From a virus (taxonomy: Duplodnaviria; Heunggongvirae; Uroviricota; Caudoviricetes), in IMG/VR virus record IMGVR_UViG_3300029840_000137, positions 1 through 7,346 of that record: 7,346 bases of DNA; one strand, written 5' to 3'. The first letter of the stretch is position 1. The number at the start of each line of letters is the position of its first letter. The position numbers were made by a program, and so were the translations under genes. The notes below the pieces were generated by a model, which saw only the letters and a program-made list of their open reading frames with translations, ran no database searches and was not told the origin of the DNA. Of this stretch, positions 361 to 5,051 are shown piece by piece.

Positions 361-1107
361 TTACTTCGCAATTCCTGGCTGGACGACATTCGGACGCCAG
401 CTCTCCCAGTTAAAATTCACCCATAGCCCGCCGTTCATGGTCATGCGATCCATAATCCGCTCGCCGAGCAATGTTTTCATGGCCTCATAGTTCAGGTTTG
501 TCAGCATCCCCACGCTGCGCATCGACGCTGTCCGGCGATCAACAATCTGGTGCAGTACCACCTGCTCGTTTTTCGTCTCGCGCTGAATGCCAATTTCATC
601 AAGAACCAGCAGATCCACTTCGCACAGTTCCCGCAAAAATTTTTCGCCTGACTGCCCATCGTCATAGCTGGCGTGGAGGGCACTCATAACATCAGCCACG
701 GTAACCACAATCACTGTCTGACCGTCTTTCAGCAGGCGATTCCCGATAGCTGCTGCTAAGTGGTTCTTCCCGGTACCAGGTTTTCCGCTAAACGCGAAAT
801 TTGTGCATCCGGTCATCAGTTCATCAGCTATAGATTTCGCCTGGCTCAACGCGTATCGCTGACCGTCGTTCTGCACCTGGTAATTCGCAAACGAGCATTT
901 ACGGTGCAACGGCTGGATGCCTGAGCGATTCAGAATTTTTTCCACCCGCAACTGGCGATTCAGGCGGTTGATCTCCTCGCTACGTTTCTGGCCTTCAGCA
1001 AGTTGCCACTCGTGCCACTCCGCTACCGTTCTGAATGGGGCGGTTACATGTGGCGGAGCCAGTCTTCGGATACGTTCAAGAACGCCGCCTGCCGCAATGT
1101 TTTTCAT
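361..1107 (-). CDS. DnaC-family replicative helicase loader (AAA+ ATPase), prophage copy of the YdaV type
   Basis: 248 aa with Walker [18 protein letters not shown] and Walker [10 protein letters not shown]. Overall resemblance to E. coli DnaC from recollection. GGGGGTGA 6 nt upstream of ATG. Stop of the upstream initiator gene lies 6 bp away. Confidence 0.9.
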
Positions 1108-1113
1108 GACACG

Positions 1114-2076
1114 TCACCCCCTGAATCCCGGCGGTATTTCAGTGTCCGGTTCAGAAATGTGATTCACGCAACGCTGCGCAGGCGAACGCCCCAGGCGGAT
1201 AACCAGTTCATCCCATTTTTCCCGGAGTTTTGCCGGACTCATGATGTTTTTTACCCAGAACGAATCCCGCTGGAGACGCCCAAACATTTCACAAATTTGT
1301 CTGTGAGTTCTGCCATCCAGCATCCGCATTGTGCGAACGTCATTGGCCCATGCTGTCCAGTTGGGTTCTTTCGGTCTAGTGATCTCGCCATCATAGCTGG
1401 CCGCCTGCTCGTAAAGACTCACGATTCGTCCCCAGATCCACTGTGCGCACACCAAATCTTCCTGACTTCCCCACTGGCGTTTTTTCGCACTGAACACAAC
1501 CGCGTCAGGGTGTCGGGTTAAAAAATCCTGTTCAGCCGTCTGCGGGTCCGGTTGCGAAGCGTCCGGACAAGAAGATCTTTTATCTGACGGATCAGGTTTT
1601 AATACTGACGGATCGGGGTCAATCATCGNNNNNNNNNNNNNNNNNTTTTTATCAACAGTTGATCCATCAAAATTTGACGGGTCAACCGTTGAGGGGTCAA
1701 TATTTGACGGGTCAACTGTTAACGGGTCATTTTTTGCCGGGCTAATTTTTCTTTTCGGTTTATATGACTCACGCGCCGCCGCCGCAGCTGCTTCGAGTTT
1801 TTCCACATTAAGCCGATAGATATTGCTTACATTACGCCCACCGACCTTACGCTCTTCCTTCGTCAGCCAGCCCTCTTTCGCCAGTTCTGCAATAGCCGAT
1901 TTCACTGTGGATTCACTTCTTGCACCGATCTGACGCCGGATAGTTTCAATGGCAGGCCATGACACGCCCTCGTCATTGCTGTAGTCTGCAAGACGGGCCA
2001 TAACCGCCACCCTGGATAAGATCATGCCGGTGAAGGCGCACCCTTCCCAGACAAGACCATGAAGCTTGCTGCTCAT
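1114..2076 (-). CDS. Phage replication initiator (lambda O-like / YdaU-like) with internal origin iterons; interrupted by a 17-nt N run
   Basis: Long minus-strand ORF directly upstream of the dnaC-like gene. N-terminal domain looks like a winged-helix DNA-binding domain. Central DPS-rich repeats (DPSTVDPSN, DPSNIDPS) are encoded by the iteron DNA. ATG at plus 2074-2076 follows GGGGG plus 4 nt; the track's longer frame begins at a GTG at 2091 with no Shine-Dalgarno. Confidence 0.8.
   Translation of the reverse strand: MSSKLHGLVWEGCAFTGMILSRVAVMARLADYSNDEGVSWPAIETIRRQIGARSESTVKSAIAELAKEGWLTKEERKVGGRNVSNIYRLNVEKLEAAAAAARESYKPKRKISPAKNDPLTVDPSNIDPSTVDPSNFDGSTVDKXXXXXXXMIDPDPSVLKPDPSDKRSSCPDASQPDPQTAEQDFLTRHPDAVVFSAKKRQWGSQEDLVCAQWIWGRIVSLYEQAASYDGEITRPKEPNWTAWANDVRTMRMLDGRTHRQICEMFGRLQRDSFWVKNIMSPAKLREKWDELVIRLGRSPAQRCVNHISEPDTEIPPGFRG
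1585..1735. repeat. Iteron array, putative prophage origin of replication, inside the initiator gene
   Basis: GGGTCA cores at 1679, 1694, 1709 and 1724 give an exact 15-bp period (gacGGGTCAaccgtt, gagGGGTCAatattt, gacGGGTCAactgtt, aacGGGTCAtttttt). Related ctGACGGATC units at 1585-1618 and the palindrome TCAACAGTTGA at 1652-1662. Four GATC sites within 1576-1664. T/A-rich tract 1730-1770 immediately adjacent. Confidence 0.7.
1629..1645. other. Run of 17 ambiguous bases (N): assembly gap or masked sequence
   Basis: Literal n characters at 1629-1645, inside the iteron region and the initiator ORF (seven X codons in the track translation). Confidence 0.95.
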
Positions 2077-2098
2077 AAAACCCCCGAACACCGTGCTT

Positions 2099-2524
2099 TT
2101 AGTGCATCACCACAGCATTCCCTGCCGGGCCGCCGCGATTCATCTGGTCATACAAAACAACCGCTGACGCAACAAAATCATCGACATCCTTCACCAGCCG
2201 ATCCCTCCGTTCGACGATATCACGGTAATATTCAGAACTGTGGCTACGCATACGGGCCACCAGCAAAGGCGGCATCGCCTTTTCGATCGCCGGTAACAGA
2301 GCCTGCATTTTTTCAACAGCATCAGGGGTGTCTTTATCCAGCCAACGGAAAATTTTCTGGGTATTACGGGCCAGGGCTTCCGGATGGCTGTCGTCATACA
2401 GTTCCGGGAACGTCATTCCCAGCTCGAAATACGCTTTGGTAATTTTCGCAGCCGGCACTTTTTCGCCGTCCGGATGCGCCCAGACATTCATCGCCATGCG
2501 GATGTGTTCATGCTTGATTTTCAT
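2099..2524 (-). CDS. ydaT: YdaT-family protein (described as a CII-like functional analogue in Rac-type prophages)
   Basis: 141 aa beginning MKIKHEHI, which I recall as the YdaT N-terminus. Sits immediately downstream of the cro-like gene and overlaps it by 17 nt. GGAG 8 nt upstream of ATG. Confidence 0.7.
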   Translation of the reverse strand: MKIKHEHIRMAMNVWAHPDGEKVPAAKITKAYFELGMTFPELYDDSHPEALARNTQKIFRWLDKDTPDAVEKMQALLPAIEKAMPPLLVARMRSHSSEYYRDIVERRDRLVKDVDDFVASAVVLYDQMNRGGPAGNAVVMH

Positions 2525-2789
2525 GAATCAAGCTCCTAGAAAGTGGTTGTGTTAACGTTTTGGTATCTTCCAGCTCGGGCCAAATATTCATCCAATCAAA
2601 AGGCCTTAGTTGCTGACGTGTAACTTCACCATTACTGGCTCGCTCAATAAGGACACATAACGATGCCCCTAACACTTGACCTTTACTCAATGCCTTTCTT
2701 AGATAACCGATGCTGGTACCACACTCGCATGCAAACATACGCTGTTCATCTGACGAAAGAGAATTGAGAAATATTCTTAATTCTTCCAT
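2508..2789 (-). CDS. ydaS: Cro-like helix-turn-helix regulator (YdaS family)
   Basis: 93 aa with an HTH-like segment (GTSIGYLRKALSKGQ). Divergent from the repressor gene. Strong AAGGAG 5 nt upstream of ATG. A sigma70-like promoter lies on the minus strand upstream. Confidence 0.75.
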   Translation of the reverse strand: MEELRIFLNSLSSDEQRMFACECGTSIGYLRKALSKGQVLGASLCVLIERASNGEVTRQQLRPFDWMNIWPELEDTKTLTQPLSRSLIHENQA

Positions 2790-2889
2790 AGCTACTCCTT
2801 AGTAAACACAGCAAAGAATACCCACAGGTAAACAAAAGTCAATACCCACAGGTTGTTTACCTTGCGGTAATCGCATCTATTATTTACCT
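2790..2889. promoter_or_regulatory. Divergent switch region: PR-like promoter for the cro-like gene (minus), PRM-like leaderless promoter for the repressor (plus), direct-repeat operator candidates
   Basis: Minus strand: -35 TTGACT (plus 2837-2842), 16-nt spacer, -10 TATTCT (plus 2815-2820). The 12-bp direct repeat AATACCCACAGG (plus 2817-2828 and 2841-2852) overlaps the -10 and the -35. Inverted repeat GGTAAACAA/TTGTTTACC at 2827-2835 and 2853-2861. Plus strand: TATTAT at 2878-2883 sits 6 nt before the repressor ATG, which has no Shine-Dalgarno. Confidence 0.55.
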
Positions 2890-3309
2890 ATGGACAAATA
2901 TGAATTTAGACGACAGCAACTCATCAAAATTCGTGATGAGAAATGCGATGGTAAAGCGGTTAACGTGGCCAGAAAGATCGGGCGCGAGCCTTCTTATGTA
3001 TCAAGAATGTTGTACCCAGAGGGGAAAAAGGGAAAAAAACGGATCGCTGATGATATGGTGGAGATTATCGAAGAGTCCTTTGGGTTACCCCGGGGATGGA
3101 TGGATGGTATCGTTTCATCATCAACGAACACAGCCTCCAGTTATGAAACAAGGGTTCTAACGCCACGACAACGTATTTTTTTAGATCTCTTAGACGAACT
3201 GCCAGAAAGTGAAGCGGATAAATTATTAAAAACTCTTGAAGAGAAAAAACAGTATTACAATATGATCTACGAAGAAATCCGTAAAAAGAAAGCACAAAAC
3301 GCATCATAG
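2890..3309 (+). CDS. CI-like prophage repressor (HTH DNA-binding protein), probably translated from a leaderless mRNA
   Basis: 139 aa. HTH-like segment (VNVARKIGREPSYVSRMLYPEG). Divergent to the cro-like gene. No Shine-Dalgarno; candidate -10 directly upstream. Confidence 0.75.
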   Translation: MDKYEFRRQQLIKIRDEKCDGKAVNVARKIGREPSYVSRMLYPEGKKGKKRIADDMVEIIEESFGLPRGWMDGIVSSSTNTASSYETRVLTPRQRIFLDLLDELPESEADKLLKTLEEKKQYYNMIYEEIRKKKAQNAS

Positions 3310-3349
3310 CTCACCAAACAACTAGTCACCAGTTAAGACACCGCAAAAA

Positions 3350-3390
3350 TTTACCCATGGGTATTTACTTTTTAAATACCTATGGGTATC
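3350..3390 (+). promoter_or_regulatory. PL-like early promoter with two palindromic operator sites
   Basis: -35 TTTACC (3350-3355), 16-nt spacer, -10 TTAAAT (3372-3377). Perfect palindrome TACCCATGGGTA (3352-3363) overlaps the -35. Near-palindrome ATACCTATGGGTAT (3376-3389) overlaps the -10 and start. Half-site ATACCCA is shared with the direct repeats in the divergent region. Confidence 0.5.
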
Positions 3391-3493
3391 CTTCTTTTCA
3401 TACCAACCCACCCCGCCCCACAGAATGCAGGGCAATACTTCGAGTTACCAGGCAGTGGTCAGGGGTTAAGTAGCCAGCCCGAGGCGTAAGAAC

Positions 3494-3727
3494 ATGACGG
3501 CAGGGTTCAACTTTAATAACTATGCAGCAGGTTTTTGTTCCGCTACCCCGGCGTTAAGGGGAAATGAGGTCAACATGGATATGCTCAATCTTGGCAACAA
3601 CGAATCTCTGGTATGTGGCGTGTTCCCCAACCAGGACGGCACGTTTACCGCGATGACGTATACCAGAAGCAAAACGTTTAAAACTGAAGCTGGCGCGCGT
3701 CGCTGGTTAACCAGAAACACTGACTGA
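3494..3727 (+). CDS. Small hypothetical early protein (77 aa; alternative start at 3575 gives 50 aa)
   Basis: First ORF downstream of the PL-like promoter. GAGG 9 nt upstream of ATG 3494; GAGG 5 nt upstream of the internal ATG 3575. Sits where the small ydaF/ydaG-type ORFs lie in Rac (from memory). Confidence 0.55.
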   Translation: MTAGFNFNNYAAGFCSATPALRGNEVNMDMLNLGNNESLVCGVFPNQDGTFTAMTYTRSKTFKTEAGARRWLTRNTD

Positions 3728-3738
3728 TGAGGTTGACG

Positions 3739-4140
3739 ATGGAATTTAAAGATTTACCAGTACCATTCCAGGAAATGGCATCGAATGTGGTTCGCTCTCA
3801 ACTGGCGACTCTTGACCTGAGTACCGTAGAAAAAGAAACCATCGATACTATATCCGGTAACGTGCGTCGTGCCTTTATAGGTCTGTATGAAGAGAAGCGC
3901 CTATTCGGCGGACAGAATTCGCCTGAAAACAAGAATCAAGCAAATGATGAGAAGCTGAAACACATTATCGCCTTACTTTTGGAAGACGCAAAACGTCTAC
4001 AGCAACTGGAACCAAATGCAGGCACAGAGGCCCGCATTTGGATTGCCATGAAATCACTCAAATGTGAAAGCAGTGATTATTTCAAAACAACAATTAAAAC
4101 TACTCAACTTTCGGGAGAGCTACTGAAGAAATTGCCATAA
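3739..4140 (+). CDS. Hypothetical early protein (133 aa from ATG 3739; track frame opens at 3727)
   Basis: GAGG 6 nt upstream of ATG 3739. The ATG at 3727 overlaps the upstream stop (TGATGA) but has no Shine-Dalgarno. No domain recognised by eye. Confidence 0.55.
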   Translation: MEFKDLPVPFQEMASNVVRSQLATLDLSTVEKETIDTISGNVRRAFIGLYEEKRLFGGQNSPENKNQANDEKLKHIIALLLEDAKRLQQLEPNAGTEARIWIAMKSLKCESSDYFKTTIKTTQLSGELLKKLP

Positions 4141-4378
4141 GAGCATGGTCTTTCTCTTGTTCTGCAAGATGAGCATTAATACCTGGTATGGTTTTTTCAA
4201 ATTTATCTATCTGTTGAATAACAACTTCGCGGTATACGTTTGTTTTTGTACCACCAAGCGCAGCCGTTAATGCAGAAAGCATATTTAGTATCATATCAGT
4301 GCGATATGAAAGAATCCTGATAGCTTCATCTTGTTTTTCAATAATAGATTGCAGGGCCTCAATTTGCTTTTTATCCAT
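4100..4378 (-). CDS. Hypothetical small protein (92 aa from ATG 4378; track frame extends to 4417), oriented against the early-left operon
   Basis: Strong AGGAGGG 4 nt upstream of the ATG at plus 4376-4378; the 4417 start has no Shine-Dalgarno. AT-rich. The 3' end overlaps the convergent plus-strand ORF by 41 bp. Contains a short hydrophobic stretch (MILNMLSALTAALGG). Confidence 0.5.
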   Translation of the reverse strand: MDKKQIEALQSIIEKQDEAIRILSYRTDMILNMLSALTAALGGTKTNVYREVVIQQIDKFEKTIPGINAHLAEQEKDHALMAISSVALPKVE

Positions 4379-4612
4379 TTCACCCTCCTGAGGGTTGGTA
4401 ATTAAGGAGTTCTCCACGGGTCAGGTGGAGTGCGTGCGCCGGACACGGGTGAACATCCGGCACTGACAGTTTACTGAAAGGATATGTCCCTGAAAAGTCA
4501 GGGCATAACGCGAAAGCGCACGGCGAAATTGGTCTCTCTGTACGGTGTCGTTAAATTTAGTTCGACCGTGCGCTTCCGGTTGTGAATAACAACATTGCTG
4601 TGTGTAGCCCTT

Positions 4613-4653
4613 GGCGGACATCGGTTTGCCGATTGCTGATGTCCGCCCTTTTT
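4613..4653 (+). terminator. Rho-independent terminator, plus strand
   Basis: Perfect 10-bp stem GGCGGACATC (4613-4622) / GATGTCCGCC (4638-4647) with a 15-nt loop, followed by CTTTTT (4648-4653). Confidence 0.7.
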
Positions 4654-4829
4654 AAAGTGAATTTTGTGATGCGGTGAATGCGGCTATGCGCACGCGGAAC
4701 AGTTAAACCGACAGGATGTCACGGAAAGTCATCGTCCCCTGACCCGGCGTTAGTTGTTAACTGGTTAACGTCACCTGGAGGTACCAGGCACCGCATCAAC
4801 AAAGTTCATTTGTGAAAATGGAGATAATT

Positions 4830-5051
4830 ATGATTGCTCATCACTTCGGAACTGATGAAATACCACGTCAGTGCGTGACGCCTGGCGATTATGTTCTTCA
4901 TGAAGGTCGGACATATATCGCTTCAGCAAACAATATTGAAAAGAGAAAACTCTATATTCGTAACTTCACAACAAAAACATGCATTACCGACTGCATGATT
5001 AAAGTTTTCATCGGGCGCGATGACTTACCCGTAAAAGCAGCGTCGTTGTGA
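4830..5051 (+). CDS. kilR: KilR-like cell-division inhibitor (73 aa from ATG 4830; track frame opens at GTG 4812)
   Basis: GGAG 6 nt upstream of ATG 4830. The 73-aa length matches Rac KilR and the position between the immunity region and recE is as in Rac. Identity rests on recollection of [10 protein letters not shown]... and on context. Confidence 0.6.

Follow-up and report, generated by a model that had tools for sequence, protein, structure and literature searches.

Two short palindromes lie between the stop codon of a prophage repressor gene (3309) and the DUF1391 gene that follows it, and they raise the question of which protein would bind there and which promoter it would control. The DNA analysed here, referred to as the window, is a stretch of 7,346 nt and is the early-control region of a Rac/Qin-like lambdoid E. 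coli prophage. Its features are listed in Table 1. Positions 2700-3800 are 100% identical to part of E. coli WP7-S17-ESBL-04, and the immunity specificity of the window is present in ∼12% of complete E. coli genomes (644 of 5426). The O-like gene is broken by a run of 17 N (1629-1645), which is followed, up to 1740, by several GACGGGTCAAC-like repeats resembling origin iterons inside an O gene; in lambda the origin iterons are likewise located inside O. A perfect YdaT box, TTGATTTTCATGAATCAA, extends across the start codon of the YdaT-like gene (2514-2531). The same arrangement occurs in Rac and CP-933P, where the box drives a PRE-like repressor promoter (PMC11879457, PMC9986795). In L001 (1844-5237), a genome identical to the window over 2700-3800, the anti-phage genes iteA and iteS are found in the same prophage, a few kb past the replication genes and outside the window; beyond ∼4400, L001 has dicB and DUF1482 genes in place of the kil and 128-aa genes of the window.

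Table 1. Features of the early-control region, with positions in the window.
Feature	Position	Strand	Remarks
DnaC-like gene	361-1107	-	
O-like gene	1114-2091	-	
YdaT (CII-like) gene	2099-2524	-	
Cro-like (YdaS-family) gene	2508-2789	-	93 aa; divergent from repressor gene
PR-like promoter of Cro-like gene, TTGACT-16-TATTCT	2815-2842	-	consensus scan; PWM 11.0
Switch-region operator TACCCACAGGTA	2819-2830		overlaps -10 of PR (- strand); exact motif
Switch-region operator TACCCACAGGTT	2843-2854		abuts -35 of PR; one mismatch
PRM-like promoter of repressor gene, TTTACC-16-TATTAT	2856-2883	+	consensus scan; PWM 9.2
Switch-region operator TACCTTGCGGTA	2858-2869		inside PRM-like repressor-gene promoter; exact motif
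Repressor gene	2890-3309	+	139 aa
OL2, promoter-distal operator TACCCATGGGTA	3352-3363		abuts -35; exact TACC-N4-GGTA
Hairpin (16 bp) of OL2 and OL1 (3352-3388) with T-rich tail TCCTTCTTTT	3352-3398	+	possible repressor-transcript terminator
-35 of early-left promoter, TTTACT	3364-3369	+	predicted; 17-bp spacer
OL1, promoter-proximal operator (A)TACCTATGGGTA(T)	3377-3388		in spacer, 2-nt overlap with -10; exact TACC-N4-GGTA
-10 of early-left promoter, TATCCT	3387-3392	+	predicted
Transcript start C3399/A3400 and conserved 5' leader to DUF1391 ATG	3399-3574	+	predicted start
DUF1391 (ydfA/ydaG-like) gene	3575-3727	+	
Hypothetical gene	3727-4140	+	
Convergent gene	4100-4417	-	
DicF-like RNA	4599-4648	+	
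Kil homologue	4812-5051	+	
recE	from 5629 on	+	

An earlier note on this DNA had described the two sites as a perfect palindrome and a palindrome with two symmetric mismatches, and both descriptions were confirmed: TACCCATGGGTA at 3352-3363 is perfect, and ATACCTATGGGTAT at 3376-3389 contains one non-complementary pair, which is what the two symmetric mismatches amount to. It had further proposed that these sites share the half-site ATACCCA with the switch region. This heptamer is indeed common to both, at 2818 and 2842 on the plus strand and at 3358-3364 and 3383-3389 on the minus strand. The window contains five copies against 0.56 expected, a number that was reached in 0 of 200 shuffles; the fifth is a stray copy at 2358. 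The sharing was therefore upheld, but the half-site is better written as WWTACC(Y)(A) within the dyad TACC-N4-GGTA. Four exact copies of this dyad were found (2819, 2858, 3352 and 3377) against 0.02 expected, again with 0 of 200 shuffles reaching the count, and all are confined to control regions, two in the cro/repressor switch region and two at the left. Allowing up to one mismatch gave seven copies against 1.25 expected and added the switch-region site at 2843. The flanks of the sites are A/T-rich. A fourth switch-region candidate at 2885 (TACCTATGGACA, three mismatches, over the repressor ATG) was not counted because it is unconserved in homologous loci. Near 3350-3390 only two sites with at most one mismatch were found and no third left operator, whereas lambda has three (OL1-OL3).

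Within the immunity type of the window, 98-99 of 99 loci retain the outer quartets of OL2 and OL1 unchanged; variation occurs in the central N4, at 3357, 3358, 3359 and 3381. A matrix of 7-mers shared between the OL and upstream regions of 13 immunity types gave a clear diagonal for six types, including those of Rac and CP-933P. For the window type it carried no information, because the sites of the window share their outer quartets only, and the dyad-pattern test was used instead.

The motif was then followed in a comparison set of six loci, namely phage mEp043 and one locus each from Salmonella, Pantoea, Klebsiella, Yersinia and Edwardsiella, whose repressor DNA-binding domains are 54-82% and whose Cro proteins are 61-73% identical to those of the window. 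Exact TACC-N4-GGTA copies in these loci were limited to the switch region, immediately upstream of the repressor gene, and to the DNA just before the early-left genes. The left pair is spaced by 25-26 bp whatever cargo separates it from the repressor gene; the centre-to-centre distance is 25 bp in the window, in mEp043 and in four other loci, and 26 bp in L218. The Klebsiella locus has a proximal left site with one mismatch and a single switch-region site. In mEp043, Klebsiella and Yersinia the early-left gene that follows the pair is N. At the right side, the operators are spaced by 24 and 15 bp in the window and by 25 and 15 bp in mEp043 and Edwardsiella. The counterpart of the 2843 site, AATACCCAnAGGTT, is kept in mEp043 and in the Edwardsiella locus (L222) and is weaker in L218, L219 and L221; the sites of the 2858 type in mEp043 and L222 lie 15 bp from the middle site. 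Across 114 loci of the immunity type of the window (1.1 Mb), only six exact copies of the motif occur outside OR and OL.

TACC-N4-GGTA thus appears to move together with the repressor DNA-binding domain and Cro. That the palindromes arose by chance in AT-rich intergenic DNA and have no function is a reading to which we assign next to no probability: short palindromes are frequent in general, which is all that speaks for it, whereas the shuffles did not reproduce the observed counts, motif and spacing recur in six other genomes and the outer quartets are near-invariant among 99 loci. The seven-locus comparison instead supports the proposal that the left sites are operators of the switch-region specificity placed on an early-left promoter, and since left and switch sites would have one specificity, a single repressor is expected to act on both regions, and by analogy so is the Cro-like protein. 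We consider it very likely that the two palindromes represent OL2 and OL1, the repressor sites at the early-left promoter of a lambda-like prophage. The literature search returned no description of the mEp043 operators or of the operator strings themselves, and the TACC-N4-GGTA specificity and its promoter register are apparently previously undescribed.

A longer-spaced dyad, TTACCTG-N10-CAGGTAA, precedes the left pair in mEp043 and in the Pantoea locus; the Salmonella and Yersinia loci have degenerate versions of it (L217 4551-4577; in L218, L219 and L221 ∼40-60 nt upstream of the OL pair). It may be a third, differently spaced operator, and it is absent from the window.

The candidate repressor was characterized at the protein level. 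The 139-aa product matched phrog_5736, a transcriptional regulator (E = 6e-70), and had no match in Pfam; it is without the C-terminal S24 peptidase domain of cI/LexA-type repressors, which serves RecA-stimulated self-cleavage. Over its first ∼75-100 residues the protein shares 64-82% identity with the N-terminal part of S24/LexA-family phage repressors, and 65% with that of the cI of mEp043, a functional lambdoid phage; PF00717 is present in homologues that have this N-terminus. The AlphaFold (AF2) model (pLDDT 81) showed an XRE-type HTH and a C-terminal helical hairpin (helices 92-103 and 106-138), according to which the repressor has an N-terminal lambda-repressor-like (XRE) HTH domain. The best Foldseek match of the model was Rep, the repressor of Salmonella phage SPC32H (PDB 5d50; E = 1.3e-3, probability 1.00), followed by C-proteins, HigA, the lambda cI N-terminal domain and HTH_XRE proteins, while a search of the PDB by sequence gave chance-level matches only. 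SPC32H Rep and the Gifsy repressors, which are controlled by antirepressors, are short HTH repressors without an S24 domain like that of the window, although SPC32H Rep has only 17-22% sequence identity to it and TM-scores of 0.38-0.47. As the best fold match of the short form, SPC32H Rep hints at SOS-independent or antirepressor-mediated induction.

Comparison of the window protein (2890-3309) with proteins P0020-P0115 showed that a DNA-binding domain with a conserved REPSYVSRMLY helix occurs in two contexts. It is fused to an S24 domain in proteins of 221-242 aa from many genera, and to a helical domain of ∼50 aa in proteins of 135-140 aa from E. coli, Serratia and Yersinia. The joining of one DNA-binding domain to either an S24 or a short helical domain is apparently undescribed.

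The divergent Cro-like protein matched phrog_35 and, at 25.8 bits and thus under the gathering cut-off of 30, the Pfam family YdaS_toxin. Because the repressor domain and Cro both co-vary with the motif, the comparative data cannot separate repressor, Cro or both as the binder. The sites could accordingly be bound by the Cro-like protein or another factor only, with a different role for the 139-aa protein. Cro and the repressor domain track the motif equally closely, and the Pfam search left the 139-aa protein without a family and without the S24 domain. Against this, the protein has an N-terminal XRE-type HTH and shares its N-terminus with bona fide S24 repressors and with mEp043 cI, from genomes that carry the same motif. 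The position and orientation of its gene and its probable leaderless start are those of cI, RacR and PaaR2 (PMC8630535, PMC9638921). We therefore regard a binder other than the 139-aa protein as very improbable. The leaderless start is suggested by the PRM-like promoter: its -10 (TATTAT, 2878-2883) ends 6 nt short of the ATG of the repressor gene (2890), and the repressor mRNA is therefore probably leaderless, as are those of lambda cI, paaR2 and racR (PMC8630535, PMC9638921).

The promoter that the left operators would control was assigned from its register in related loci. The sequence TTTACT-17-TATCCT had a PWM score of 8.6, the best within 110 bp upstream of the conserved leader. As a promoter it is weak, with four of six matches in each hexamer, and nine sites in the window score equally well. 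Its placement, in contrast, recurs: in all seven loci that share the domain, the -35 of the best sigma-70 match follows the distal site immediately (site A+12), and the -10, at site A+35/36, opens with the TA of the proximal site's GGTA. The -10 hexamers in these loci are TATCCT, TATATT (four loci), TATCTT and TAACGT. The window's own PR, on the minus strand, has the register of PL, with the layout AACCTGTGGGTA-TTGACT-TTTGTT-TACCTGTGGGTA-TTCT for PR and TACCCATGGGTA-TTTACT-TTTTAAA-TACCTATGGGTA-TCCT for PL. Among loci of the same type, TTTACT is intact in 94 of 99 and TATCCT in 96 of 99. A scan of IMG/VR for the conserved leader gave 120 loci of ∼13 immunity types. In 13 of 13 types, 9-15 nt separate the end of the -10 of the best promoter from the leader pattern, and dyads specific to the type flank the promoter. 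Over these ∼13 types the element swaps with the immunity type while the leader stays, and the junction between the two coincides with the predicted start site.

The earlier note had also placed a PL-like promoter at these two sites, which lie on the left border of the immunity module. A promoter there agrees with these results, but the note gave its hexamers as TTTACC (3350-3355) and TTAAAT (3372-3377). These are present with a 16-bp spacer, as it said, but match poorly, and the promoter so drawn lies ∼15 bases too far upstream compared with the best-supported TTTACT-17-TATCCT. If it were nevertheless the functional promoter, OL2 would lie over the -35 and OL1 over the -10 and the start, at ∼3384. 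The spacer length is legal, and TTTACC is also the predicted -35 of the repressor-gene promoter in the switch region. The PWM score, however, is 4.3, with 149 sites in the window as good or better, and TTAAAT lacks the A at position 2 of the -10. TTTACC is changed to GTTACC (T3350 to G) in 35 of the 99 same-type loci and intact in 64. mEp043 and the other five loci have no matching -10, their best promoter always lying 14-15 bp further downstream, and the register conflicts with that of 12 other immunity types on the same leader. This alternative is improbable, and TTTACT-17-TATCCT is taken as the early-left promoter in what follows.

Downstream of this predicted promoter lies a leader of ∼175 nt (3399-3574), of which the first ∼100 nt are near-invariant in ∼13 unrelated immunity types and in K-12 Rac. 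It is also found in inducible E. coli phages, for example Tritos and Evi, and the match of K-12 DNA to the window is limited to 3399-3562. The 5' end of the leader, CCCACCCCGCCCCACAG, is rich in C, and a hairpin, CCCCGGCGUUAAGGGG, precedes the DUF1391 start. A single covarying pair was detected in it, and an Rfam scan of the leader gave no match. Three roles can be envisaged for the leader: a rut site for silencing by Rho, an antitermination RNA acting in cis, or a regulator of translation. In lambda, N and nutL follow the left promoter; the early-left promoter of the window is followed by this different conserved leader instead, with neither an N gene nor a nut site.

Taken together, these data allow a model for the control of the left operon. 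The 139-aa HTH repressor would bind as a dimer at all five sites (2819, 2843, 2858, 3352 and 3377), and by analogy with lambda the Cro-like protein is expected on the same sites. OL2 would abut the -35, and OL1 would fill the spacer and supply the first two bases of the -10. Repressor on OL2 and OL1 would then cover the -35, the spacer and the -10, so that RNA polymerase would be excluded and the leftward operon, comprising the DUF1391 gene, the DicF-like RNA, kil and recE, would be silent in the lysogen. On relief of repression, transcription is predicted to start at ∼3399-3400, exactly where the conservation of the leader across types begins. The repressor may form a higher oligomer that loops OL to OR, ∼520 bp apart. 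Repressor binding, repression, the start site and OL-OR looping are inferred here from the sequence. In related prophages, the OL sites of PL933P of CP-933P and its regulation by PaaR2 and YdaS were shown with reporter assays (PMC8630535), and depletion of RacR derepresses the left-operon genes of Rac (PMC11014345; bioRxiv 10.64898/2026.09.06.749655).

The proposal of the earlier note that the promoter drives the early-left genes through recE is doubtful in that form. A convergent gene (4100-4417) and the terminator hairpin of the DicF-like RNA lie between the promoter and kil/recE, and expression of recE would therefore need read-through. The DicF-like RNA (4599-4652) scored 29.5 bits against an Rfam gathering score of 48 (E = 5e-5 on a short stretch). 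It ends in a strong 13-bp hairpin followed by UUUUU (4613-4652), upstream of the Kil homologue. The literature search on sbcA and the recE promoter returned nothing usable.

The two operators also form a hairpin with each other, which the earlier note had overlooked. With the sites extended by TTTA/TAAA, the arms form 16 pairs around a 5-nt loop, and the structure was terminator-like in a scan, with TCCTTCTTTT as its tail. The RNA fold had a free energy of -22.2 kcal/mol (z = -5.95). An Rfam scan of 3350-3390 gave only a meaningless match of a miRNA model to the hairpin (E = 0.17). Together with the T-rich tail, this inverted repeat of 37 nt (3352-3388) may act as an intrinsic terminator of the repressor (PRM/PRE) transcript, besides or instead of being an operator. 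The scan and the fold are in line with this, and the sole imperfect pair is a G-U in the plus-strand RNA, for which natural variants have A-U (3359 G to A) or G-C (3381 T to C). The hairpin begins 43 nt past the stop codon of the repressor gene, on the strand of that gene. Nothing else between this codon and the promoter resembles a terminator, and a transcript from 3399 would exclude the hairpin. Four of the six homologous loci and most of 12 other types have a separate GC-rich hairpin with a T-run upstream of OL, and in the immunity type of the window no canonical terminator was found in the corresponding interval (3310-3351).

On the other hand, any two near-identical palindromic operators can pair, and comparable folds occur in loci that have a terminator of their own (L222, -21.6 kcal/mol; mEp043, -17.9 kcal/mol). 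The stem is AT-rich, with 5 G-C among its 16 pairs, and the first residues of the tail are U, C and C. A comparison of 105 same-type loci revealed no double compensatory change; six of nine distinct arm substitutions were compatible with the hairpin, which is about what chance would give for transitions. A terminator as the only function is excluded by the comparative data, since it would not account for the presence of the motif in the switch region and, at a fixed promoter register, in six other genomes. Overall, a terminator at this position seems rather unlikely. Slightly less likely still, and put forward tentatively, is the specific proposal that in this immunity type the left operators also act as the intrinsic terminator of the repressor gene, in place of the GC-rich terminator that most sister modules carry upstream of OL. 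If it were true, the same 37 bp would block initiation at PL as protein-binding DNA and, transcribed into an RNA hairpin with a U-rich tail, would halt read-through from the repressor gene into the kil/DicF/recE operon.

With the two palindromes read as OL2 and OL1, the locus can be set beside known systems. As in lambda OL/PL, dyad operators of one specificity are located at both ends of the immunity module, and the proximal and distal left sites lie ∼24-25 bp apart over the -10 and -35 of a promoter that faces away from the repressor gene. PR and PL share their architecture in both, and the repressor mRNA, leaderless in lambda, is probably so in the window. The window differs from lambda in its 12-bp operator core (TACC-N4-GGTA) compared with a 17-bp operator, in a helical C-terminal domain of the repressor in place of the S24 self-cleavage domain, and in an OL-OR distance of ∼520 bp compared with 2.3 kb.

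Phage mEp043 (DNA-binding domain 65% and Cro 73% identical) has the operator core, the 25-bp OL spacing and the promoter register in common with the window. In contrast to the window, its cI has an S24 domain, and an extra gene and a canonical terminator precede OL. Its PL is TAGACA-17-TATATT, which is followed by a lambda-like nutL and N.

CP-933P and K-12 Rac have the gene order of the window (DnaC-like, O-like, YdaT, YdaS/Cro, repressor, early-left operon) and the same leader and DUF1391 gene after the left promoter, and in both, as in the window, the operators at the left promoter match those of their own switch region. Their repressors, however, are unrelated to that of the window, and their operators are GTTTAGTAA-type repeats in CP-933P and TTAGGC-N3-GCCTAA in Rac. 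In K-12 Rac the dyads ATTAGGCATAGCCTAT and ATTAGGCATTACCTAT surround TTGACA-17-TATAGT, and these left dyads fit the consensus of the footprinted RacR operator, TTAGGC-N3-GCCTAA (PMC9638921). The combination of a RacR homologue with such operators, characteristic of K-12 Rac immunity, was not found in the window.

The arrangement is that of a textbook lambdoid prophage and leaves the general picture of lambdoid regulation unchanged, but a concrete operator, TACC-N4-GGTA, a promoter register and a predicted start are now assigned to this immunity specificity. Because the DNA-binding domain and the operator core are common to mEp043 and to Salmonella, Klebsiella, Pantoea, Yersinia and Edwardsiella prophages, heteroimmunity and cross-repression become predictable. 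As the repressor would guard toxic cargo, namely kil, the DicF-like RNA and recE, this element would set the conditions under which they are expressed.
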